A stretch of 64,000 bases of DNA, from contig OZ241841.1 in assembly GCA_965202665.1 (NCBI GenBank), positions 2,144,001 to 2,208,000 of the forward strand, given 5' to 3'. The position numbers and the translations under genes were made by a program. The notes below the pieces were generated by a model, which saw only the letters and a program-made list of their open reading frames with translations, was not told the DNA's origin and did no database searches. Positions 23,872 to 64,000 of this stretch are shown one piece after another. Source of the stretch: Candidatus Spongiisociaceae bacterium (lineage in GTDB: Bacteria; Actinomycetota; Acidimicrobiia; Spongiisociales; Spongiisociaceae). Every line of letters begins with the position of its first letter. Positions within the stretch are counted from its first letter, which is position 1.

Positions 23872-26800
23872 ATGACGACAAGCGAAACCGCTCAGGGCGC
23901 AATGATGGAAGGCGTCCATCGCCCTATGCCCGCGCTTGCCCCCAAACTGTTTTGGTTCCTCGTCGCCGTTGCCGTCGGTGCCACTCTCCTTCTAGCCGCC
24001 CCCCCTTCCCCAGCCCAGGAAACCACCCCCGAGACCGCGCCCGCAACTCCCACGATCACCCTAAGCGTAAACCAGACCAGCGTGACGGAGAGCAGTAGCA
24101 ATATTTCTATTTCCGTAACAGCGACGGCGAGCGAGGCGGTTTCATCCCCAACAACGGTAATGGTTGAAATAGGTAGAAACGATGATTCTGCGATGCGAGG
24201 AACAGATTATGCTTATGTAGCACCATTTCACATTATTATTGCGTCAGGGGGTATGACGGGAACGAGCAGTTTCAATTTGGCCAGTACCGACGACAATGTA
24301 GCGGGAGAGGGATCAGAGACCATCACGGTTTCCGGCACTGTAGCCGGTTTCACGGTTAACGGCACCTCCATCACTCTTGCGGATGCCGACACTGCGGTCA
24401 CCCTTAGCGTCGATTCAAGCAGAGCGGCTGAGAGCAGTGGTGATATTCCAATGACCGTGAAGGCTACCGTGGCCGTGGCTTTGTCATCAAATTTGGATAT
24501 AACGGTAAGTGTGGGAAGTAATCGTGATACGGCGGTGAGCGGGACAGATTATAAGGAGATAGGCGATGTTGTTATAACACTACTAGAAGGTCAAACGGAA
24601 ATCTCAACAATACTTAATCTGGCTGATACGGATGATAATATAGCAGGAGAAGGATCTGAATTTCTTACGATTACAGGTAGTAGTAGCGATTCTGATTTCA
24701 TCTTTGGTAGTGCTTCTTTCATTTTAACTGATGCGGATTCTCTGCCATCCGGTATTACATTAACGGCGGATACGAACAGTAGAATATCGGGTTTGCAACA
24801 GAACATAGAAGAAGGTAATGGGACAGTCACCGTTACCGTTACGGCTTCTTTCCCTGCTAACTACTCCACCGTTTTAGCTTATGATGTCAAAATTCGTATT
24901 ACAGGAGGTAGTTCGAGTGATAGTGCTTCTCCCGGAGCAGACTATAGATTGCCTGCTGGGTATGTTACTATTAAGGCTGGAAGCACTAGTTCGGTTGATA
25001 CTGCTTTTACTCTGACTGTAATAGATGACAACTATGCAGGTGAAGGCGATGAAATCCTAACCTTGTCTGGTTCCCACGCGACATTTACCGTTACGAATAC
25101 TACTTTGACTATCAAAGATAATGATGAAAAATCAACTACAATAAATTTGAGCGTTACGGGAAATGGAGTTGAAGGCGAATCAAAGAAAATAACTGTTACC
25201 GGTTCTTTCCCAGCCGGTTCCGCGGTTCTAGTGTCAAATACTTCTGTAAGCATTACTTTTGCTGGCACTGCTGATTCTAGAGGGGATTTTATAACAATAC
25301 TTCCGAAAACTCTAAACATCGCTAGTGGACAATCCAGCAGTTCAGTATCTTTCAATTTAACCGCAAAGGAAGATACTGTGGTTGAGGGTGCTGAGATCAT
25401 AAATGTTACTGGAACCGCTACTGATTTCTCCATTAACGGATCGAAGATTACGATTCTTGATAATGATCTCGTTTTAAGTATAGATACTGATGCTAATACT
25501 GCTGGAAATCAGAATACGATTGATGAAGATAGCGGTACTGCTACTGTAATGATTACTGCTAAATTCCTTGGTTCAGGTACTTTGGCTAAAAGCACAGCGG
25601 TATCTATTACAGTAGGAAAGGATAGCGATTCTGCTACTAAAGGCTCAACCAAAGATTATACTATAACGAGTTCCTTACCTGCTATAACTATTCCGGCAGG
25701 GAGTTCGCAAGTCTCGGCTACTTTTACATTTAGCATTAATAACGACACAGAACACGAGAAAGATGAAACTATAACTATTGTCGGCGGTGCTACAGGCTTT
25801 GTTATAGGCGATGTAGAGATGAATATACGCGATAATGACATTGGATTAAGTATTTCTCCCGAGTCTACATATGAGTTTGCCCAAAATGTAGAGTTTGAAG
25901 TAACAGCTGAACTTCCGTACGGTACAGCACCCGCTGGTGGAATCACTATTGGAGTTGTAATAGGCAAAAGTAGCGATTCGGCGACCACCAATTATTATAA
26001 GGTTGTAGGTGATGATTTTACGCTCACTATTCCACACACGAAAGCAAAAGGTTCTATTAGATTTAGGTTGAATTTAACGGAGGACGATACTATCATAGGG
26101 CCGGAAAAGATTTCTGTATATGCTAAATTCCAGGACTCTGATACCATAAATTCCAGTAAGTATGGTATCGATGAAACCTATATTCGAATAGTAAACTATA
26201 CAAGAATTCCCATATCTCTTTCTATTAGAGGTAGAGGTACAGGAAGCCTAACAGAAGTGGATGAAGGTAGTGATAATCGTATGTGGCTACAGATGAGAGT
26301 TAATGGAACACCATCTGTACCACATCGGGTACCTTTATCATATCGAGGCTCAGCTACATATAGGAATAGTAGCTCATCTGTCCGAGATCCTTTGGAGGAT
26401 TTCACAACTGTTGAACCAATACTGTGGTTAGCTCGATTTTCTTCTATTTCTACCATCGAATTTAACCTGAATGATGATGACCTAGCAGAGGGGCCAGAGG
26501 AATTTTCTGTACGGGCTATTTTTGGTTCTTATTTTTTTATTAGTAATACTATAAGAATTCTAGATAATGACGTTGCGCCTGATACCGTTTCTTTGAGCGT
26601 GGATTTGGACAAGGATACTGAAGGAAATCAGGATATAATTGGAGAGGGGGATGCCACCGTTGAGGTGAAGGTTACGGCCAGCCTGCCGACCGGGTCCAAC
26701 GCCTTCGGGTCGAATACCACCATCACCGTGATGGTGGAAGGGAAAGGAACCATCGGCAAAGCCGAGGCTACTGATTTCACTACAGTGGACAATTTTGATG

Positions 26801-28458
26801 TGATAATCCCGGCGGGGGAGGAAACCGGGTCGGGGACCTTCAACTTAACAATTACCGATGACAAGGTGGTGGATGTTACTCCGGAAACCATTACCGTGTC
26901 TGGTAGTACAACTCGTTCCGGATTGTCGGTCACCGGGGATACCATCACTATTAATTCCGATAACGACGTTGTCAGTGCGATCGCATTGAGCGTGGATACT
27001 GACACCGCAACGACAAACAAAGAGACTACAATCAACGAAGATAGTGATGAAAACAAAATCGAAATAACCGCTTCTTTAGGGGAGTTTAGTTTTGAAGGTT
27101 CATCTACTACTGTTGGCGTTACAATAGCAAGTGGAACTGCAACGATAAAATCGACGGATAACTCGGAATACGACTTTGCTGTGGACAGCAGTTCGCTTAA
27201 TATAACTATACCTGCTGGTACATCAAGCGGTTCAACTACATTTGATATTGTTACTAATAATGATCGTAAACTGGAAACGGTTACTTCAGGCTCCGGGGAG
27301 ACTATATTGATATCAGGTACTCTATCTGCCAATCCTGGTTTCAGCGTTACGGGAGCTACCATTGAAATTATTGACAATGAAGTGGCGGACTTGTTACCTG
27401 GTAGATGTAATGGAACTTATGTAACCAATACCGCACTATCCGATTTGGTCAAAGATTGCAAGATACTGATTGGTCTGAGGAATGCTTGGAGCCCTAATCT
27501 GTCTGACAGTCACCCTCTCAGAACTTGGGGAAATGGTGATAATACGGCCATCACAAGTTGGAGCGGTGTCACCATTTCCAATAACAGAGTAGGCGGGTTG
27601 GCTTTAGCAGGCAGTAGCACAAATGGATTTATAGAGGGTACAATCCCTATTAATTTATGGAAAATAAGTAAGCTGACTAATATCGATTTTTCTAATAATA
27701 ATTTGAGCGGAGAGATTCCCGTTCCCATTACTAAGTTACGTGGCCTTACCGCTTTAGATTTGTCTAATAATAGTTTAACTGGAGAAATTCCTGTTCGGTT
27801 TAGGATTTTGAGTAATCTTCGAACGTTAGATCTTTCCGGTAATATGTTGACAGGATCTATTCCTAGCCATCTTGGGGCTTTGACCAATCTCACTAGCCTG
27901 AAAATATCTAATAATCTGCTGTCCGGATCGATTCCTAATCGTATAGCTTCTCTGGTTAAGACATCGAATCAAGGTTTGAAGACCTTTTTCTTTTGCGATA
28001 ATAATCTTGAAGGGACGTGGCATACAAAACTTCAAAGAATAACATCGGATCTTAAGATGTCGGATTATGTCAACGATATTGACGTATGTCGTAGGTCTAT
28101 TGACTTAACCTTCGATAATCCGAGTGCTACTACCATACAAATAGGTGAGGGCAGTGGAACCGTAACAGTGACAGTTAAGGCTACCTTACATACATATAAA
28201 ACTACTCCGCCCAACGAGGATATCACAGTGAAAATAACCGTGGCAGGAGATTCGGCAACATCACCAGGCGATTTTACTGTGGATAAAACGGAGTTCAACG
28301 TGACAATAGAGAAAGACCAAATCAACAAAACGGCTACCTTTAGAATTACACTTGTAGATGATAATAGTGTTGAAGGGACTGAGAAGGTAAGTATATCTGG
28401 TGAATCTGATGGTTATGCGGTGAATGACACAGAGTTAGAGGTGACGGATAATGACTAA
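23872..28458 (+). CDS. large secreted Calx-beta-like repeat protein with a leucine-rich-repeat block
   Basis: Signal peptide ending SPAQ, repeated DSA..G.DY / DD...EG.E.I.V.G / I.DND modules, LRRs of LxxLxxLDLSxNxLTGxIP type at ~27400-28095. Mostly AT-rich. Start could be a later Met. Confidence 0.85.
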   Translation: MTTSETAQGAMMEGVHRPMPALAPKLFWFLVAVAVGATLLLAAPPSPAQETTPETAPATPTITLSVNQTSVTESSSNISISVTATASEAVSSPTTVMVEIGRNDDSAMRGTDYAYVAPFHIIIASGGMTGTSSFNLASTDDNVAGEGSETITVSGTVAGFTVNGTSITLADADTAVTLSVDSSRAAESSGDIPMTVKATVAVALSSNLDITVSVGSNRDTAVSGTDYKEIGDVVITLLEGQTEISTILNLADTDDNIAGEGSEFLTITGSSSDSDFIFGSASFILTDADSLPSGITLTADTNSRISGLQQNIEEGNGTVTVTVTASFPANYSTVLAYDVKIRITGGSSSDSASPGADYRLPAGYVTIKAGSTSSVDTAFTLTVIDDNYAGEGDEILTLSGSHATFTVTNTTLTIKDNDEKSTTINLSVTGNGVEGESKKITVTGSFPAGSAVLVSNTSVSITFAGTADSRGDFITILPKTLNIASGQSSSSVSFNLTAKEDTVVEGAEIINVTGTATDFSINGSKITILDNDLVLSIDTDANTAGNQNTIDEDSGTATVMITAKFLGSGTLAKSTAVSITVGKDSDSATKGSTKDYTITSSLPAITIPAGSSQVSATFTFSINNDTEHEKDETITIVGGATGFVIGDVEMNIRDNDIGLSISPESTYEFAQNVEFEVTAELPYGTAPAGGITIGVVIGKSSDSATTNYYKVVGDDFTLTIPHTKAKGSIRFRLNLTEDDTIIGPEKISVYAKFQDSDTINSSKYGIDETYIRIVNYTRIPISLSIRGRGTGSLTEVDEGSDNRMWLQMRVNGTPSVPHRVPLSYRGSATYRNSSSSVRDPLEDFTTVEPILWLARFSSISTIEFNLNDDDLAEGPEEFSVRAIFGSYFFISNTIRILDNDVAPDTVSLSVDLDKDTEGNQDIIGEGDATVEVKVTASLPTGSNAFGSNTTITVMVEGKGTIGKAEATDFTTVDNFDVIIPAGEETGSGTFNLTITDDKVVDVTPETITVSGSTTRSGLSVTGDTITINSDNDVVSAIALSVDTDTATTNKETTINEDSDENKIEITASLGEFSFEGSSTTVGVTIASGTATIKSTDNSEYDFAVDSSSLNITIPAGTSSGSTTFDIVTNNDRKLETVTSGSGETILISGTLSANPGFSVTGATIEIIDNEVADLLPGRCNGTYVTNTALSDLVKDCKILIGLRNAWSPNLSDSHPLRTWGNGDNTAITSWSGVTISNNRVGGLALAGSSTNGFIEGTIPINLWKISKLTNIDFSNNNLSGEIPVPITKLRGLTALDLSNNSLTGEIPVRFRILSNLRTLDLSGNMLTGSIPSHLGALTNLTSLKISNNLLSGSIPNRIASLVKTSNQGLKTFFFCDNNLEGTWHTKLQRITSDLKMSDYVNDIDVCRRSIDLTFDNPSATTIQIGEGSGTVTVTVKATLHTYKTTPPNEDITVKITVAGDSATSPGDFTVDKTEFNVTIEKDQINKTATFRITLVDDNSVEGTEKVSISGESDGYAVNDTELEVTDND

Positions 28459-31400
28459 GTTTACGGCTTCTGTGTTTGGTAGGTTGCTTCTTGCCTCTTT
28501 GGCGGTTGTTGGGTTTCTTGCCCTAATGGCCGGTTCTTCGGCTTTGGCCCAGGAGTTGGGGACGGAGCCAGTTATTAGGTTGAGTATCAGCCCGGGGAGC
28601 GTTACCGAGGGAGAGAATTATTCGCTGATAACGGTAACTGCCTCGTCTGACGTGTCGGTGCCGGAAGATACACGTGTTTCGGTATTTGCTATCGGCCTAA
28701 CCTCCGTCGAGGAATTAGATTTTATATCTTCATCACTAGAATTAGTTATTCCCCAATATAGCAATAGAATCTCTGAACTTTTGCTCTTAGACATCGTTGA
28801 TGATGATGATATTGAAGGAACAGAGATTATAACTGTTGTGGGCATAGCTAGCGGGTTTACGGTTGAAGGCGATGACATTCAGATCATAGATAATGATATT
28901 TCAACATTTAGCTCTTCTACGCCTTTTGCTATTGCTGAATCTCGAAATAATGACTTTTCAACCTCTAGTTCGTCCGACCTCTTTACTTTTTCTGATTCTC
29001 AGAATGATGATGCGGAGATTCCGGTTGCTACCTCCACTACAGAAACAACTCGTACTTTCCCAACTATGAATAAAACTGGATGTTCCGATGGAACATATGT
29101 GACTGATCCTACTATCAATACAGGTTTAGTATCTGACTGCGAAGCCCTGATAGACATAAGAAATCATTGGATCAGTGATCCTGATAATGTCATTTTACCA
29201 ACCAATCATCCCTTGAGAACATGGGGAGGGAACATTCGTAATTGGAAGGGTGTTACAATTAATGCAAAGCAACGTGTAATAGGTTTATCATTCCGAGGGA
29301 CTTGGGGCCTGCGATTCGATTTTAGAAGGAGTGACAGTAAGAAAAATATTGCGGGTACAATACCTCCTGATATTGGCCGACTGACCGAACTAGTGAAACT
29401 GATATTACGGCACAATGATTTGTCGGGTTCTATTCCAGACGAGTTGAAAAATCTCTCAAATCTAGAAATTATTGATTTTGAGGGCAATATTCTTACAGGA
29501 TCCATCCCTATCTGGTTGGATGATTTACCAAATATTAGAATTGTACGATTTGGTCTTAATAAATTATCGGGTAATATTCCGCCTTTGGATAATTTGTTAC
29601 AGATAAGAACTCTTAAATTTCATGATAATAAGCTCTCTGGGAACTTGCCTAGCCTAAGCAACCTTGGTACTCTTGCTAACCGGAGTGTTACGCTCGATTT
29701 TAGTCGTAATAATTTTTCAGGATATATACCAACTAACTGGGGTAACTTAGATATAAATGAATTACTTTTGAGTGGCAACAATTTGTCGGGGACTATCCCT
29801 TCTCAATTTCGTAACTTAGATAAACTAACGACTTTAGCACTACAAAGAAATAATCTTTCGGGTCCTATTCCTAATTGGTTAGGTAATTTACCACTCCACC
29901 ATATTGATCTTTCTCGTAATCAATTTTCTGGGAATATTCCTTCCTCTTTTGCCAGCTTAAATGATCTTAGAGTTTTGTCCCTTCATTATAATAATTTGTC
30001 TGGTGTTATTCCTTCGGGGCTTGGCAAATTAAAAAAATTGGCCCAATTGTCCTTGGGATCAAATCAATTTTCTGGGAATATTCCTTCCTCTTTTGCCAGC
30101 TTGAGTAATATTTTAGGTTTGTTCCTTAATAATAATAATTTGTCTGGTGTTATTCCTTCGGGGCTTGGCAAATTAAGCAATTTGATGTATTTGTCCTTAG
30201 AAGAAAATAATTTGTTTGGTGTTATTCCTTCAGGGCTTGGCGAATTAAATTTATGGACTTTGTCCTTAAATGAAAATTTCTTATATGGAACTATTCCTCC
30301 AGAGCTTGGTAATTTAGCACCTACAAAAGGTGGCAATTTATGGGCCTTTGATTTTTGCAGAAACTATTTTTCAGGATTGTTCCCAGATCCGTTACGTCTT
30401 ATTGCCAAATTAGATGGTGAAAGAGGTCAACAAGGTGATGCTGTTGACTGTCAAAGGGAGTTTGATATTACGTTGGACGTCGGTTCGTCTAATGTAAGTG
30501 AGGGTAGTTCTGCTGTGGTTACGGTGTCCGCTTTATTGAAATCTGGGCAGGTTGCTCCGGCGGGGGGTCGCTCGATTGCGGTTTCGGTTGGAAGATTGGG
30601 GGATTCGGCGACAGAGGGAACCGATTATACGGAAGTGGAGGATTTCACTATCACGATTGCGGCGGGCGCCTCGCGGGGGTCCGGGTCGTTTACTTTGTCG
30701 GCGGCGGATGACGATGTAGCGGAGGGTTCAGAACGGGTGACGGTGTTGGGATCCTCGGGAACGTTGGCCGTTAGGGAGGCGGAGGTTTTCATCAATGATA
30801 ATGATGTTGCCCCTACTGCCATAGTTTTGAGCGTAGATGCCAACGGGGATGGGGAAGGCGCTCCCACTGCGGTACTGGAAGGCTCCATTGACAACACGGT
30901 TAAAGTTACGGCGGCTTTCCCAGAAGGGTCCAAGTTGTTGCCGGAGGATACGGTGGTGTCGGTGTCGGTGTCGGGGGACGGGGGGGCCGGGCGGGCGGAG
31001 GCTGATGATTTCACGGCGGTGGATGATTTTGATGTAACAATCGCCGCCGGGCAGACGAGCGGATCCGCAACCTTCAGCCTGGCCGTCGCCGAAGATGAAG
31101 TGGCGGAAGGGACGGAGGCGATAACCGTGTCCGGAATCACCGACGCCGACGGGTTTGAGACCGTCACCGGGGCGGAGGTTTCCATAACCGACAACGACGC
31201 CGGACCGACCTCCATCACCCTCAGCGTGGACGCCAACGGGGACAAAGCGGGCGCCCCGACCACGGTGGCCGAAGGGGCGAAGGCGGCCACGGTGTCGGTC
31301 ACCGCGTCTTTCCCGGAGGGCTCCAAGATGTTTGAGGAGGACACGGCGGTGACGGTGGCGGTGGGCAAGGAGGGGGATGCGGCGGTGGAAGGTTCCGACT

Positions 31401-53372: not shown

Positions 53373-53423
53373 CCACGCGAGTAAGCCCGCAGACAAGATA
53401 AGACCAGTAGAAAGGACCAGGCG

Positions 53424-54296
53424 ATGCCGGTTGTCGACGCCCACTTGCACCTGTTCCGGGCGCGGAGCGAAACCTATCCCCGGGATGTCATAGACGGGAT
53501 GACCCCGCCGGAGCGGGAAGAACCCGCCGAGGAGTTTTTGGCCGCCATGGAACGGGCCGGGGTGGACCGGGCGGTGATCGTCCCCCTTTCCACCCACGAC
53601 CATTATCTGGCGGAGATACTGCGCGACTTCCCCGGCAAATTCGCCGGAGTGGGGGTGTACGACGCCGATGCCCCGGACGGGGCGGGGCAGGTTGCCCGCC
53701 GGGCGGAGCAGGTCGGCGTCCAGGGGTTGCGTTTCTACGGGTTCGGGGCCGATGCCGGGCAGGCCCCGGAGGAGATGGCCGTGTTTCCGGTTTTGGAGGC
53801 GATGCGGGAGGCGGGGATGGTGGTGTGGTTCTACGGGTCGCCCGACCAGGTGCGCCTGTTGGACGGGGCGATGGAACTTTTGCCCGGCCTGAAAGTGGTT
53901 TTGAACCATTTGGGGTTCTGCCCCGACATTTGGATGGAAATCAAGATGGACGCCGACATGCGCCCCCGGTTCGACATCCCCCTGCCCCCGGATTCCCTGG
54001 AGCTGATAGAGGAGACGGCCGCCAAGCGCCCCGATGACCTCTACGTGCACGTGTCCGGCCAATACGCCTTCACCGGTGCCGACTACCCGCACCCCGACCT
54101 GCAGGAAGTGGTGGACCGGGTGTACGCGGCCTTCGGGGCGGAGCGGATGATGATGGCCTCCGACTGGCCGTGGATAAAACACAACCCGGGCTACAAGGAA
54201 ACCCTGGCCCTGGCGGACCTTTACCTCCCCGACCTGACCCCGCCCGAACGGGAAGCCATCCGCGGCGGCACCGCCTCCTCCCTTTTCACATTTTAA
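53424..54296 (+). CDS. amidohydrolase family 2 protein (lactonase-like)
   Basis: VDAHLH, GVDRAVIV, LNHLG, AFGAERMMMASDWP. Confidence 0.88.
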   Translation: MPVVDAHLHLFRARSETYPRDVIDGMTPPEREEPAEEFLAAMERAGVDRAVIVPLSTHDHYLAEILRDFPGKFAGVGVYDADAPDGAGQVARRAEQVGVQGLRFYGFGADAGQAPEEMAVFPVLEAMREAGMVVWFYGSPDQVRLLDGAMELLPGLKVVLNHLGFCPDIWMEIKMDADMRPRFDIPLPPDSLELIEETAAKRPDDLYVHVSGQYAFTGADYPHPDLQEVVDRVYAAFGAERMMMASDWPWIKHNPGYKETLALADLYLPDLTPPEREAIRGGTASSLFTF

Positions 54297-54786
54297 GAAA
54301 AGCCACCGCTAGTTTACAATCCCAAGCAGCAACCAGCGCCGTAGCGACAAGGGGGCGTGAAAACTAAATCCTGGGGCGCCTTAACCTGGGGCGCCTATGA
54401 TTCCTTTCGCCCACCACGACTGCGAATGGGTAACCCGCGAAAATATGGAGTTACCCTTCGGTTGGGAATCGGTCTGCTTGCTGGGCTCCGCCCAAACCGG
54501 GAAACGCCGGTTGCCCCTCCCTCAGATTATCGATGCGCTGATGTCCGCCGGTACCATCTTTATCGATGCAGAGGGCAGAGGTGATTGGCCTATCGTCTTG
54601 ACCTATCACGCGTTCGGTCCCACACAGGACAGTCCCATCCATGTCTTGTTCGGGTTTCATCAATTTTTTCCGGTGGGTAAAATAATGCACGCTTGTCGTT
54701 ACCTATGCGATGCTTCTCGGCAATTCTCAGGATTTGGGGATGTTAGGCTACGCTTAGGACGCGAGAGGGAATAGGAGGTACAACCA

Positions 54787-55113
54787 ATGCCTGCAGATTC
54801 AGACTACGATCCGTTGGATTACGATAGTTTGGGAGCGCGGTTGCCTGAGCATATTAGGCAGTGGCGGGATGACCCGAACCATTGGTTCAACGACCAGGAG
54901 GACAACCGGTATTGGGAGGAGTACGATCGGGACTTGATGGCTGGTCGGCGCGGCGCGGAGGTGTGGGAGGCGGCGCGTCGTATGGAGGAGGCGGGTCAGA
55001 CTACGGTGACCATCAACGGTCGGGAGTACCCGGCGGCTACCACCGCCGACTTGGAGAGAATGTACAAGGCGGCCCGAAAACGCGCCCGCGCGCAAACCGA
55101 ATCTCCTTCCTGA
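54787..55113 (+). CDS. hypothetical 108-aa protein, array copy 1
   Basis: RBS AGGAGGT; conserved core DPNHWFNDQEDNRYWE...MEEAGQTTVTINGREYPAA. Confidence 0.85.
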   Translation: MPADSDYDPLDYDSLGARLPEHIRQWRDDPNHWFNDQEDNRYWEEYDRDLMAGRRGAEVWEAARRMEEAGQTTVTINGREYPAATTADLERMYKAARKRARAQTESPS

Positions 55114-55140
55114 CGTTCGGTAACGATTGGAGGCGCAACG

Positions 55141-55467
55141 ATGTCTGCAGACTCAGGTTACGATCCGTTGGATTACGATGTTTTTGGGCGGCGGTTGCCT
55201 GAGCATATCAGGCGGTGGCGGGATGACCCGAACCATTGGTTCAACGACCAGGAGGACAACCGGTATTGGGAGCAGCATGACCGGGATCTGATGGCTGGTA
55301 GGTGCGGCGCGGAGGTGTTGGAGGAGATCCGTCGCATGGAGGAGGCTGGCCAGACCACGGTGACCATAAACGGTCGAGAATACCCGGCGGCGGTGCGCTC
55401 CAACATAGAGAAGTTCCGAGCCTTGGCTCGAGAACGCGAGCGTTCCCAAACCGAATCCCCTTCCTGA
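55141..55467 (+). CDS. hypothetical 108-aa protein, array copy 2
   Basis: Own RBS TTGGAGG; same length and core as the other copies. Confidence 0.85.
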   Translation: MSADSGYDPLDYDVFGRRLPEHIRRWRDDPNHWFNDQEDNRYWEQHDRDLMAGRCGAEVLEEIRRMEEAGQTTVTINGREYPAAVRSNIEKFRALARERERSQTESPS

Positions 55468-55495
55468 CGTTCGGTAACGATTGGAGGCGTAACCG

Positions 55496-55822
55496 ATGTC
55501 GGCAGGCTCAGACTACGACCCTTTGGAGTATGACATTTTGGGGAATCGGCTCTCCGAGGAGGAGATACGGTGGCGGTCGGACCCGAACCATTGGTTCAAC
55601 GACCAGGAGGACAACCGGTATTGGGAGGAGTACGATCGGGACTTGATGGCTGGTCGGCGCGGCGCGGAGGTGTTGGAGGAGATCCGTCGCATGGAGGAGG
55701 CTGGTCAGACCACGGTGACCATCAACGGGCGGGAGTATCCGGCGGCGGTGCGCTCCAACATAGAAAAGATACGCGCCCGAACCAGGGAGCGCGAGCGCGC
55801 CCAAACCGAATCCTCGTCCTGA
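55496..55822 (+). CDS. hypothetical 108-aa protein, array copy 3
   Basis: Own RBS TTGGAGG; most divergent N-terminal block. Confidence 0.85.
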   Translation: MSAGSDYDPLEYDILGNRLSEEEIRWRSDPNHWFNDQEDNRYWEEYDRDLMAGRRGAEVLEEIRRMEEAGQTTVTINGREYPAAVRSNIEKIRARTRERERAQTESSS

Positions 55823-55850
55823 CATTTCGGGAACGATTGGAGGTACAAGG

Positions 55851-56177
55851 ATGTCTGCAGATTCAGATTACGATCCGTTGGATTACGATAGTTTGGGGGC
55901 GCGGTTGCCTGAGCATATCAGGCGGTGGCGGGATGACCCGAACCATTGGTTCAACGACCAGGAGGATAACCGGTATTGGGAGCAGCATGACCGGGATCTG
56001 ATGGCTGGTAGGTGCGGCGTGGAGGCGTGGGAGGCGGCGCGTCGTATGGAGGAGGCGGGTCAGACTACGGTGACCATTAACGGTCGGGAGTACCCGGCGG
56101 CTACCACCGCCGACTTGGAGAGATGGTACGAGGCGGCCCGGAAACGCGCCCGCGCTGAAACCGAGTCTCCTTCCTGA
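55851..56177 (+). CDS. hypothetical 108-aa protein, array copy 4
   Basis: Own RBS TTGGAGGT; same length and core. Confidence 0.85.
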   Translation: MSADSDYDPLDYDSLGARLPEHIRRWRDDPNHWFNDQEDNRYWEQHDRDLMAGRCGVEAWEAARRMEEAGQTTVTINGREYPAATTADLERWYEAARKRARAETESPS

Positions 56178-56205
56178 CGTTTGGGTAGCGATTGGAGGTA
56201 CAAGG

Positions 56206-56532
56206 ATGTCTGCAGATTCAGATTACGATCCGTTGGATTACGATAGTTTGGGGGCGCGGTTGCCTGAGCATATCAGGCGGTGGCGGGATGATCCGAATCA
56301 TTGGTTCAACGACCGGGAGGACAACCGGTTTTGGGAGGAGGATGACCGGGAGTTGATGGCTGGTCGGCGCGGCGCGGAGGTGTGGGAGGAGGTGCGTCGT
56401 ATGGAGGAGGCGGGCCAGACCACTGTGACCATAAACGGGCGGGAGTACCCGGCGGCGGTGCGCTCCAATATAGAAAAGATACGCGCCCGAACTAGGGAGC
56501 GCGAGCGCGCCCAAACCGAATCTTCGTCCTGA
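56206..56532 (+). CDS. hypothetical 108-aa protein, array copy 5
   Basis: Own RBS TTGGAGGT; same length and core. Confidence 0.85.
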   Translation: MSADSDYDPLDYDSLGARLPEHIRRWRDDPNHWFNDREDNRFWEEDDRELMAGRRGAEVWEEVRRMEEAGQTTVTINGREYPAAVRSNIEKIRARTRERERAQTESSS

Positions 56533-56579
56533 CGGTCGGCCAACCATCATTTTCGATTATCCCAAAGGCGGGATTCAGT

Positions 56580-56942
56580 TCAGTCTGTGTCCGGCCAAAA
56601 AACGGTAGCGCCCAAAACCTGGTTCCTGTGCCAGTTGATTCTTACCCAAACCGGGCCTTCCGGTGGCTTTATGTCCGATTCTCGGGGTATGTAACCAAGT
56701 TTTTTGTCCTCGGCTTCGATATATAAGGCATCAAGATCATGCAGGTTGTAAGTCTCATATACCGCCCGCCCTGGGATAAGTCGTTTTCCATGCTCCCCGT
56801 ATAGGTCGGCGAGATTTTCCTGACGGTTCTCGAAGGTTACTCCCACCAAGTCAATGCTGTATCCTTCAACGTCGCCATCGAAACTGTCATCATCAAAATA
56901 CCCGGTTCTGACAGGATAGCCGCGCTTGGTATTTGCTTTCAT
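56580..56942 (-). CDS. HIRAN-domain protein
   Basis: LVGVTFENRQ...ETYNLHDLDALYI...KKLGYIPRE matches the HIRAN pattern (vGv.f..rq / EP.N.yD.nAi / lGYvP); lower GC. Confidence 0.65.
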   Translation of the reverse strand: MKANTKRGYPVRTGYFDDDSFDGDVEGYSIDLVGVTFENRQENLADLYGEHGKRLIPGRAVYETYNLHDLDALYIEAEDKKLGYIPRESDIKPPEGPVWVRINWHRNQVLGATVFWPDTD

Positions 56943-57017
56943 ATCTTCCCATAATAGCAAACCCCGGTTTTGCTGTTGATCCGATGACGGATGATCCCCG
57001 TATAGTTTGCGGGCGGG

Positions 57018-61193: not shown

Positions 61194-61439
61194 ATGACAT
61201 TTACGGATAGGACACCCTCATCAGACGCTGAGGCTGTTGCGCGGGAACGGGAGCGGTGGTTTTCCGACCCCGAGGACAACGCTTACTGGGAGGAGATGCA
61301 CGCCAGCTTGGAGCGGGGCGACCCCCAGCATGCCGAGTTCTCCCGCGCCGCCGCCGAGCACATCTTGGGGAGCCTGCGCCCGGGCGAGAGGCTGGAGTTG
61401 CGTCCCGGGGAGGGCCTTTTCGTCGTCTCCGACGACTGA
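61194..61439 (+). CDS. hypothetical 81-aa protein related to the array proteins
   Basis: RBS AAAGGA; WFSDPEDNAYWEE versus WFNDQEDNRYWEE in the array. Confidence 0.65.
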   Translation: MTFTDRTPSSDAEAVARERERWFSDPEDNAYWEEMHASLERGDPQHAEFSRAAAEHILGSLRPGERLELRPGEGLFVVSDD

Positions 61440-61730: not shown

Positions 61731-62198
61731 TCAGCCACCCCCCCGCGGCTGGGGGTCGTAAATGGCCGACAAAGAACCCTCCGGTTCGTCCTTCACTACC
61801 CAGTGGACGTTGGGGATAGTTATCCGGGATAATAATTCGGTTAGCCGGTCGGTCGTTTCGGCTAGCTGGTTGGAGGTTACCGCTAGCTGTTCGGAGGTTT
61901 CACGATTAGCCCGCGCCGTTTCCCGGTTATCTTCCGTCGCCCTCCGGTTATCTTCCGTCGCCCTCCGGTTATACTCCGCCGCCCTCCGGTTGTCTTCCGC
62001 CGCCCTCCTGTTATCCCATGCCGCCGCCCATAGAGATCCGTCTATCCGAGTCGCCATTTCATCTAACCGGTCGGTCGTTTCCCGGTTCGTTTTAGCCGCC
62101 GTCCGGTTGTCTTCCGCGCTCTCCGGGCGGCGTAACCGAAATCCGTCCTTCTGTTGGTTACCGCCGTCCTCCGGCGGCCTGTTTGGTTCGTCCGTCAT
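61731..62198 (-). CDS. hypothetical coiled-coil protein with heptad (EDNRRAA/T) repeats
   Basis: RBS GGAGGA; 21-nt tandem repeat at ~61923-62029. Confidence 0.7.
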   Translation of the reverse strand: MTDEPNRPPEDGGNQQKDGFRLRRPESAEDNRTAAKTNRETTDRLDEMATRIDGSLWAAAWDNRRAAEDNRRAAEYNRRATEDNRRATEDNRETARANRETSEQLAVTSNQLAETTDRLTELLSRITIPNVHWVVKDEPEGSLSAIYDPQPRGGG

Positions 62199-62495: not shown

Positions 62496-62774
62496 ATGAG
62501 CAACCTACAGCAGGACCTCCAACGTAGATTCCCTCAGATAGCCGACCGTCTCCAAACTCGGGACGGCAAGCTGACTTTGTTAGACAACGGCGTACCCGTG
62601 GCCGTGTTGCTGACGCCCGCTGAAATGGAAGGTTTGGAGATCACATTGGAGTTGATGTCCGACCCCGATGCCGCTACCGAGATTCGAGAGGCAGAAGAAG
62701 CGTACAGAGTAGGCGACGTAGTTGAAGACGAAGCCAAGATTAGAGAACTCATAAGCCGCCAGTCCGGCAATTAA
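62496..62774 (+). CDS. type II antitoxin, Phd/YefM family
   Basis: LTLLDNGVPVAVLL...EGLEITLELMSDP...EIREA; TAATG coupling to a toxin-like ORF. Confidence 0.78.
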   Translation: MSNLQQDLQRRFPQIADRLQTRDGKLTLLDNGVPVAVLLTPAEMEGLEITLELMSDPDAATEIREAEEAYRVGDVVEDEAKIRELISRQSGN

Positions 62775-62977
62775 TGCAAAAATACGCACCAGCGTTTGCC
62801 CCGGCTGTTCAGCGTGCGTTGGCGGAAACGTTGCCAGAGTCTGTTGCGTTAGCGGCTGTGGATTTAATCTATGGGGATATGTCCCAAAACCCTCAGAGGG
62901 TACATAACCCGTCATCTAAATCCGATGCTCTAGTAATTGATGAACAAGGGTTTCTACCCGCAATTTCTCCGGGGTAG
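62774..62977 (+). pseudogene. truncated RelE/ParE-family toxin
   Basis: First 43 aa (RALAETLPESVALAAVDLIYGDMSQNPQRV) resemble actinobacterial RelE N-termini. The GKPL...SARRGxYR catalytic half is absent, and the tail is read antisense to the next gene. Confidence 0.65.
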
Positions 62978-63998
62978 TTGTCAACCATTTCCGTAGTTCC
63001 CTACGCGCCACCGTTACGGAAACAGGCTTGTCCTTTGCTATTCTGCTATCTCTTATCACAGACCACTCTTCGGCGGCTTTGATACGGAGATCCCCGCCCA
63101 GAAGAGCAAGTTCCGTATGTATGGGGTCGGTATCATCATATTCTGGTATAGGCAAGCGCCATAGATGTTTTTGTAAATGGCGAGGGCCAAACTGCCCTTT
63201 GGCCATTAGAGGTTTTACCGCTTTTTCGAGGGTTTCACTATTAATTATGGCTGAAAGATAGTCCGCTTCTTCTATAGACAGGCATTCGATCCAGAATAGC
63301 GTGGTATAAATCAATGGGCTTGAATCATCCAGGACAGCTGCTGTAGGTCGCCCGGAAGAAGTGTATATTAGACGAATCTGCGCAAGATTTTTTGTCTGCA
63401 TCGTTAGTTTATTCACATAATCAATTTGATCAACTAAGTTGAGTTTGGTATCTTTACTCTTGTAGTCTTCCCATAAGTTATACATTACTTGCCAGCGTCT
63501 ACGCATTCTCTCACTCAAGGTCCTACCATCAATACCGCCAATCGACGTTTCCGAGTTGGAACGGATAATACTTTGACCCCGTTCGCTTATTGGCAAAACC
63601 ACCTTCTGTGGTTCAAGTAATATATAGGGGGCGACAGTTTCGCCTAAATGAATATCATATATATGATTTTCTTCTAAAGGCCCTGATAGTTTTTGAATTT
63701 CTGCTTGTTCAAAATTTTTCCAAGGCGATTTTTCTTGTGAACTACGATGTGGTTCAACGCGGCAAAGTCCTCTAACTAACGAGGAGTCTAGGTTAGATGT
63801 CTTTACAAAAAAGAGCACGCGTGGCACCGTGGTAGCACCTTGCGTGGCACGTCTACCATACTCAGAGTTATATTTATCTGAAGTATCTTTGTAATCAATA
63901 TAATCGTATTCGTAAGGGCCACCTTCTTTACCAAGCCAACGCTTTGTCTTGGATTTTAGTTTTTTGGCATCTGTAGAAGTTGATGTTTTGGTAGCAAA
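62916..63998 (-). CDS. C-terminal part of a probable type IIG restriction-modification / N6-adenine methyltransferase protein (5' end outside the window)
   Basis: The frame stays open to the window edge in my translation; QGATTVPR, LGETVAPY, YTSSG, EEADYLSAIINS, GQFGPRHLQK, LPIPEYD are typical of the target-recognition region; AT-rich. No methyltransferase motif lies inside the window. Confidence 0.65.
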   Translation of the reverse strand, partial: FATKTSTSTDAKKLKSKTKRWLGKEGGPYEYDYIDYKDTSDKYNSEYGRRATQGATTVPRVLFFVKTSNLDSSLVRGLCRVEPHRSSQEKSPWKNFEQAEIQKLSGPLEENHIYDIHLGETVAPYILLEPQKVVLPISERGQSIIRSNSETSIGGIDGRTLSERMRRRWQVMYNLWEDYKSKDTKLNLVDQIDYVNKLTMQTKNLAQIRLIYTSSGRPTAAVLDDSSPLIYTTLFWIECLSIEEADYLSAIINSETLEKAVKPLMAKGQFGPRHLQKHLWRLPIPEYDDTDPIHTELALLGGDLRIKAAEEWSVIRDSRIAKDKPVSVTVARRELRKWLTTTPEKLRVETLVHQLLEHRI

Positions 63999-64000
63999 GA

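Follow-up and report, generated by a model that had tools for sequence, protein, structure and literature searches.

The window analyzed here is a stretch of 64,000 nucleotides (64 kb) from the genome of a Candidatus Spongiisociaceae bacterium, hereafter G000, which is a single contig of 2.77 Mb (94% complete, 64% GC); positions up to 64,000 are those of the window, and the sister-species genome used for comparison is designated G001. Near the end of the window two kinds of small gene, which we call A and B, follow one another on the plus strand. Gene A (54397..54774) is an ORF of 125 aa that is both polymorphic and mosaic between strains, and its product is a predicted RNase toxin of DUF4258-like type (BECR fold). 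Its stop overlaps the GGAGG ribosome site of the first B gene (54772..54786), an arrangement suggestive of translational coupling, and upstream of it (54293..54320, plus strand) lies a weak candidate match to a sigma-70-like promoter (9/12; four such matches in the region versus 1.3 +/- 1.3 in shuffled sequence). Five tandem copies of B follow, each an ORF of 108 aa: copy 1 (54787..55113), copy 2 (55141..55467), copy 3 (55496..55822), copy 4 (55851..56177) and copy 5 (56206..56532). They are separated by one spacer of 27 nt that contains GGAGG (55114..55140) and three of 28 nt (55468-55495, 55823-55850 and 56178-56205), all on the plus strand, which gives the array a period of 354-355 nt. All five frames are intact, of the same length and free of indels, and a GGAGG precedes every start, just as an earlier note on this DNA had described. 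No remnant of a toxin gene was found in the four spacers. The ribosome sites of B are strong, with anti-SD pairing energies of -9 to -12; that of copy 1 is -11.6 versus a weak -4.7 for A. Immediately beyond the array, the segment 56533-57010 contains a minus-strand ORF of 126 aa (56580-56960) with no Pfam match; it is unique in the genome, differs in G001 and is apparently absent in the sequencing run X17.

The B proteins are acidic (pI 4.7-5.1, with 4.8 for copy 1, a predicted antitoxin), and the structure model of copy 2 (pLDDT 65) is composed of helices and a beta-hairpin in the order helix-hairpin-helix. An acidic helix region with a W-x-x-D motif is conserved across all the B subfamilies. 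In the sister lineage there are B proteins of 158-187 aa in which the helix-hairpin-helix module occurs twice, and an 82-aa paralogue stops right after the hairpin. The earlier note recognized no family for B, and our searches of Pfam, NCBIfam, PADLOC, PDB sequences and the ESM Atlas likewise gave no usable match; fold searches with the structure model reached no known fold (best E of 1.4 in Foldseek, best Z of 4.0 in VIA-align). Neither Pfam nor NCBIfam matched an RHH, HTH or AbrB DNA-binding domain in these proteins, and a possible resemblance to ribbon-helix-helix antitoxins finds no support in profiles. A zinc-finger-type antitoxin was also considered and rejected: B has no CxxC motifs, the hhalign probability was 8%, and a rank test was not clearly above its reversed control. 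No RNA dataset was among the listed matches that carry the sequence.

The five copies are 74-93% identical in pairwise comparisons of their DNA, and no single tree accounts for the way in which their differences are distributed. The earlier note had distinguished four variable blocks, A to D, between conserved cores and had grouped the copies differently from block to block (1 with 3 and 2 with 4 in block B; 1 with 4 and 2 with 3 in block C); we recover the same groupings. Incompatibility affects 498 of the 1485 pairs of informative sites (55 sites, five copies), and compatible sites are clustered along the gene (PHI-like permutation, P of 5e-5 to 1.5e-4). In a parsimony analysis, the best single tree takes 137 steps versus 123 with a tree for each block, the minimum being 115, where the blocks are those delimited post hoc, after inspection of the data. 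Long identical tracts link shifting pairs of copies: 1 and 3 (nt 85-178), 2 and 4 (nt 51-116 and 118-169), 2 and 3 (nt 164-209), and 4 and 5 (nt 1-86). The same picture extends to other strains. The members of 10 B clusters together with four further representatives gave 72 sequences, from which two (one a fragment, the other without the anchor motif) were dropped; this left 70, the window's five among them, from two species-level groups. These contain 52 block combinations, a count that is inflated by point changes and may include short-read chimeras, and the block types are common to the window's species and its sister species. Site incompatibility, block trees and the number of combinations thus all support the earlier proposal that the B copies are a repertoire generated by recombination or gene conversion. 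The accompanying claim, that the blocks reassort independently, fared less uniformly: the mosaic reshuffling is real, but blocks C and D are coupled (xEAAR with the TTAD-type, xEEI/V with the VRSN-type) in 69 of the 70 sequences, and this coupling spans an invariant core of 20 codons.

Selection was compared between cores and blocks as the earlier note had suggested. The pooled pN/pS is 0.35 for the whole gene, 0.11 and 0.0 for two cores, and 1.08, 0.32, 2.19 and 0.58 for blocks A to D, the values above 1 (blocks A and C) resting on few codons; since the blocks were defined post hoc, these figures show that the cores are constrained but not that any block is under positive selection. As to the machinery involved, the earlier note had seen no reverse transcriptase nearby, and there is no RVT_1 candidate anywhere in the 94%-complete G000. 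A diversity-generating retroelement is ruled out both on this ground and by the variation itself, which is block-wise and affects all four bases rather than adenine only. Genes comEC and dprA are present, and as no reverse transcriptase was found, ordinary homologous recombination suffices.

Gene A is as changeable as the array behind it. For this comparison, protein records were grouped into assemblies by the shared size of their longest contig, and not by DNA. In seven assemblies whose flanking proteins are 97-100% identical to those of G000, A is 74-82% identical in six and 99% identical in one. There are at least three allele classes of A within one species, 78-88% identical to one another, and A is a mosaic between strains (120 of 351 pairs incompatible, P of 1e-4). 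At the locus that has a single B gene, A is nearly invariant and B varies at its N-terminus only. Run X17 differs from the window at 69 positions and by four gaps over 53400-54711, with at least 17 of these inside the amidohydrolase gene (870 nt).

The A protein has a pI of 6.3, hence is not basic, and is a lone domain of 125 aa in which no signal peptide, secretion domain or delivery domain was seen. Across 40 sequences of the family H82, H98, C100 and C104 are invariant; when the most distant paralogue is added, just I44 and H98 remain so. The protein carries an N-terminal PF..H..P.GW extension and a C-terminal H-A/S-C..C tail. Its structure model is of low confidence (pLDDT 50), with an order of helices and strands that is compatible with the BECR fold; searches with this model matched no known fold, comparison with PDB sequences gave nothing below E 0.1, and in the ESM Atlas the scores were at best 0.80 or less.

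More can be learned from profile comparisons. Profiles were built from 29 DUF4258 and 29 BrnT genes, leaving out matches with internal stops. In a first alignment, the A family matched the 29 DUF4258 sequences with an hhalign probability of 65.6% (P of 5.8e-5). With 15 diverse members of A the probability rose to 91.4% (P of 9.1e-7), and the score was 38.5, where none of 30 column shuffles exceeded 15.1; this comparison, over 51 columns, was chosen in advance, and its P scaled to a Pfam-sized search corresponds to an E of about 0.02. The match to BrnT (PF04365) was weaker (probability 18%, P of 0.0013; for scale, DUF4258 and BrnT match one another at 76%). When the A profile was used to rank 2324 ORFs, most of the non-toxin ones being spurious frames, seven of the first 10 ranks and 16 of the first 50 went to the 58 DUF4258/BrnT toxins, and with the reversed profile none of the first 50 did. 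Conversely, the best match of the DUF4258 profile in G000 is a paralogue of A (E of 0.09). A direct Pfam scan found DUF4258 in one of 10 A members at E 0.2, with a best score of 12.4 bits versus the 25-bit cut-off; G000 contains no match above the DUF4258 (PF14076) cut-off and none to BrnT (PF04365), and single-sequence profile comparisons of A with two DUF4258 proteins gave no match. DUF4258 is described as an uncharacterized TA toxin family of the BECR fold (PMC11980606, accessible text), and is placed in a Colicin-like branch whose characterized members mostly cut tRNA, often with a conserved histidine (bioRxiv 10.64898/2026.08.28.747851, accessible text). His98 of A, which is invariant even with the most distant paralogue included, may be the catalytic residue. 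Since the A family aligns with the DUF4258 toxins, B is most likely the antitoxin of A, and we consider it probable that the two are a BECR-type toxin and its cognate antitoxin. An antitoxin or immunity role had been one of several options offered for B earlier; it is now the best supported of them, and it is the conserved upstream partner A, itself polymorphic and previously missed, that makes the case.

The association of the two genes is not peculiar to the array, as A precedes B wherever both occur (three loci in G000, two in G001). In G000 a 52% identical A is followed by an 82-aa B at 2566459-2567065, and adjacent A and B ORFs lie after a tRNA-Leu gene at 2584152-2584755; these were the best new profile matches among 33,708 ORFs (E of 0.01 for A and 0.003 for the B, of the 81-aa subfamily). 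Compared with other strains, the A gene at this last locus has a frameshift close to its end; its B is intact. In G001, A precedes B at the syntenic locus and again at about 894 kb. Orphan B genes occur as well. Within the window, a distant paralogue of 81 aa (61194..61439, plus strand) has the WFxD-EDN motif and matches B with an hhalign probability of 86% (P of 6e-6), and G000 has two further lone B-like ORFs (1539 and 2210 kb); alignments between the B subfamilies have probabilities of 81-87%. The orphan in the window is preceded by an RNA ligase gene (PF09414; 60141..61082, plus strand), mentioned here for context. In G001 a member of the A family, absent in the window, is located between this ligase and the 81-aa B paralogue, its start overlapped by the stop of the ligase, and a link of RNA repair between the ligase and the predicted RNase is possible. 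The distribution of the two families is narrow: B is present in 2 of 41 related genomes, A in the same two among 29 genomes of the family (plus three weak matches at E 0.06-0.07) and in one of 251 genomes of the class, G000 itself. Among 1.84 billion representatives A had three true matches and a spurious one, to a long repeat protein, and no longer protein carrying the A domain. No relatives of A or B were found in viral contigs or in JGI metagenome contigs, a set from which near records may be missing; the runs that carry the sequence include sponge metagenomes. As far as these searches go, neither family seems to extend beyond this genus.

Five block-swapping copies that stand directly behind a strain-variable gene for a likely RNase toxin are likely to be a mix-and-match set of antitoxins. 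Our preferred reading is that A and the five B genes form a type II toxin-antitoxin operon: a predicted RNase toxin that varies strongly between strains would be kept in check by a recombining antitoxin repertoire; judged from the comparisons above, the chances that it is correct are about even. On this reading, A would be a DUF4258-like RNase of the BECR fold that acts inside the cell, and the acidic W-x-x-D helix region of B would bind it. Unequal crossing-over and gene conversion by way of the invariant cores could produce new B copies and combinations without any dedicated enzyme, and new A alleles may arrive by homologous recombination between strains, for which comEC and dprA are at hand. 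Carrying several B variants would then let a cell survive more A alleles, and diversity would be kept on both sides. That the locus is an undescribed system, as had been suggested, holds good for both protein families and for their layout; the module itself is most likely of a known kind, a type II TA with a DUF4258-like toxin.

The principal competitor accepts the TA module but regards its array as a matter of dosage or as a nearly neutral by-product of frequent short duplication: extra toxins would be purged and extra antitoxins tolerated, and conversion would reshuffle old variants with their specificity unchanged. The genome lends itself to such an argument. A comparison of G000 with itself revealed many tandem duplications, so that amplification alone is not unusual here, and of nine that were inspected four have toxin or antitoxin genes. 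At 2471407-2475076 an intact PIN gene (above the Pfam cut-off) is followed by five full-length partners of 96-102 aa and two partner fragments, with broken PIN copies interleaved; here the toxin had been part of the repeat unit and its surplus copies are broken, as this competitor would have it. The partners are of no known family, with two more at 2542658-2543428 and three in G001, and they too are mosaic (832 of 1653 pairs incompatible, P of 2e-4). At 802320-803869 a PemK/MazF gene is flanked by two near-identical partners of 176 aa that belong to no Pfam family, and at 1877826-1878465 there are two tandem Phd/YefM antitoxin genes. The fourth locus, 1068432-1069312, has a distant gene of the A family (probability 93.6%) with two tandem acidic partners of 72 aa, for which no relation to B was detectable by profile; four partner-like frames follow the G001 orthologue of this A-family gene. 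Known toxins with repeated partners in the same genome make it more likely that B is an antitoxin, and equally strengthen the view that amplification is simply a habit of this genome. The G001 copies of B, moreover, look frameshifted, which may be decay or sequencing error. Three observations speak against dosage or neutrality: the 74-82% identity of A between strains whose flanks are 97-100% identical, a spread that the A of the single-B locus does not have; the coupling of blocks C and D across their invariant core; and the sharing of block types with the sister species. On balance we find this competitor unlikely, though the most credible of the alternatives.

Less probable still is an anti-phage module, in which B would keep A inhibited and use its variable blocks as sensors of phage proteins or of infection stress, the release of A would abort the infection, and pressure from phages would drive the diversity. 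Type II TA and other defence genes are enriched in sponge-associated UBA5794 genomes (PMC12008989, accessible text) and BECR toxins have been tied to defence (PMC11980606, in the part available); in addition, copy 2 of B weakly matches the phage family of unknown function phrog_1409 (PHROGs, E of 4e-4). This match, however, occurs in one of the two copies scanned, none of 10 proteins matched PADLOC 2.0 (2023 library) at E up to 1, and viral contigs hold no relative. Phage pressure alone would also leave it unexplained that A is as variable as B. The related notion of the earlier note, that B might serve as a phage decoy, gains no support from the viral-contig and PADLOC searches.

Distinctly improbable, in our estimation, is that B confers immunity to toxins delivered by neighboring cells (A or a related domain being what is delivered), or that A and B are not a toxin pair at all. 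The architecture of the array does match the esaG and tipC loci (PMC9484751, accessible text), and at 1498663-1503537 G000 has a minimal T7SS-like pair, in which a single WXG100 gene accompanies the gene for an FtsK-type ATPase of 1371 aa. Yet A is a single domain without a secretion or delivery part, the WXG100/FtsK locus is about 700 kb from the array with no toxin gene seen beside it, and the 1.84 billion representatives included no longer protein with an A domain.

There remains the question of whether the array is genuine. It comes from a metagenome-assembled genome of a mixed population, and strain variants of one or two genes might have been joined into a false array; no single contig piece or read among those compared spans it whole. 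For comparison, Logan contigs from four runs, each belonging to a different study, were aligned with 54200-56800 of the window. In X1 and X3, either of which may be the source sample, the listed short contigs that cover spacers and the ends of B copies are identical to the window (0 differences), and the read depth over the array is close to that of the flanks (in X1, 55-85 versus 70-73). Runs X8 and X9 also show most of the copy-end and spacer pieces among those listed, and in X9 a gene of the copy-4 type departs from the window in its block-B/C sequence. All five B proteins are on record in exact form, each on 2-4 contigs, several B variants occur together on one long contig in other assemblies, and in G001 homologues of B stand in tandem at the syntenic place, between the amidohydrolase and aminotransferase genes. 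An assembly artefact, already largely excluded, is very improbable.

How does the A-B locus compare with known systems? Toxin-first BECR modules of the DUF4258 (PF14076) and BrnT (PF04365) type likewise consist of a small toxin-like gene and then a small partner, and A aligns with these toxins over the helix-strand-strand core; nevertheless, it is far below the DUF4258 family cut-off and has, in addition, the N-terminal extension and the H-A/S-C..C tail, the latter absent from the DUF4258 alignment. B differs from the zinc-finger (YgiT/MqsA-like) partner that accompanies DUF4258 genes and has no Pfam match to BrnA, and it forms a five-copy mosaic array. Gene order differs as well, the toxin coming first in A-B and the antitoxin first in DUF4258 modules as given in the available part of PMC11980606. 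At the esaG locus of Staphylococcus aureus and the tipC locus of streptococci, a polymorphic toxin is accompanied by a row of immunity paralogues that differ from one another and are reshuffled, gained and lost through homologous recombination at conserved blocks (PMC9484751, in the accessible text). The tandem non-identical B copies beside the polymorphic A likewise recombine through conserved blocks; but the toxins of those systems are secreted by the T7SS against other cells, whereas A has no delivery part and is not found with a secretion system, and no kinship in sequence is expected. Extra, or orphan, antitoxins have been proposed to neutralize incoming toxins of the cognate type in the anti-addiction model (PMC7354431, available text), to which the orphan B genes of G000 offer a likeness. 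Unlike such antitoxins, the B copies are tandem and mosaic and share an operon with A; neither "tandem" nor "duplication" occurs in the main text of that paper. We suggest by analogy that A-B may function like the esaG/tipC arrays and the anti-addiction antitoxins while being a member of neither, and it lies below the DUF4258 cut-off. In the literature searched, outside which most subscription journals fall, no paper was found that describes arrays of this kind at the loci of type II TA systems, or that deals with Spongiisocius.

If the preferred reading of A and B as a toxin operon with an antitoxin repertoire is true, nature would have supplied in this locus a test case for the anti-addiction idea, which in the available text of PMC7354431 is not yet shown to be a common use. 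A single species would offer at least three allele classes of the toxin together with dozens of recombinant antitoxins, whose variable blocks point to the specificity surface. A new toxin family confined to this genus would be added at the edge of DUF4258, and the same amplification would be at work at unrelated TA loci of one symbiont. A broader idea, which we put forward tentatively and think somewhat more apt to be wrong than right, is that the genus runs a within-species arms race of toxins and antidotes at its chromosomal type II TA loci. Recombination would carry toxin alleles from strain to strain, and cells would respond with tandem block-shuffled antitoxin repertoires, poly-immunity arrays for toxins that are not secreted, which would have evolved in parallel for the new DUF4258-like family and for the PIN and MazF types.

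Several minor observations concern the surroundings. A small acidic protein or domain with the motif LPDGY...IVRxDPxLP recurs in G000 at 1866426-1867804 and 1494906-1495184, and one is inside the partner array of G001 at the 1068-kb-type locus. In the window, 61734-62198 (minus strand) is an ORF of 155 aa whose EDNRRAA-type repeats are 7 residues (21 nt) long. At 62496-62977 a Phd/YefM-like antitoxin (E of 6e-7, just under the cut-off) overlaps an ORF of 67 aa without a Pfam match, which resembles a truncated RelE-type toxin. Low-GC stretches are found in the window at about 24000-31000 (0.40-0.44) and 62900-64000 (about 0.50), and genes for tRNA-Arg and tRNA-His are situated about 3 kb beyond its end.
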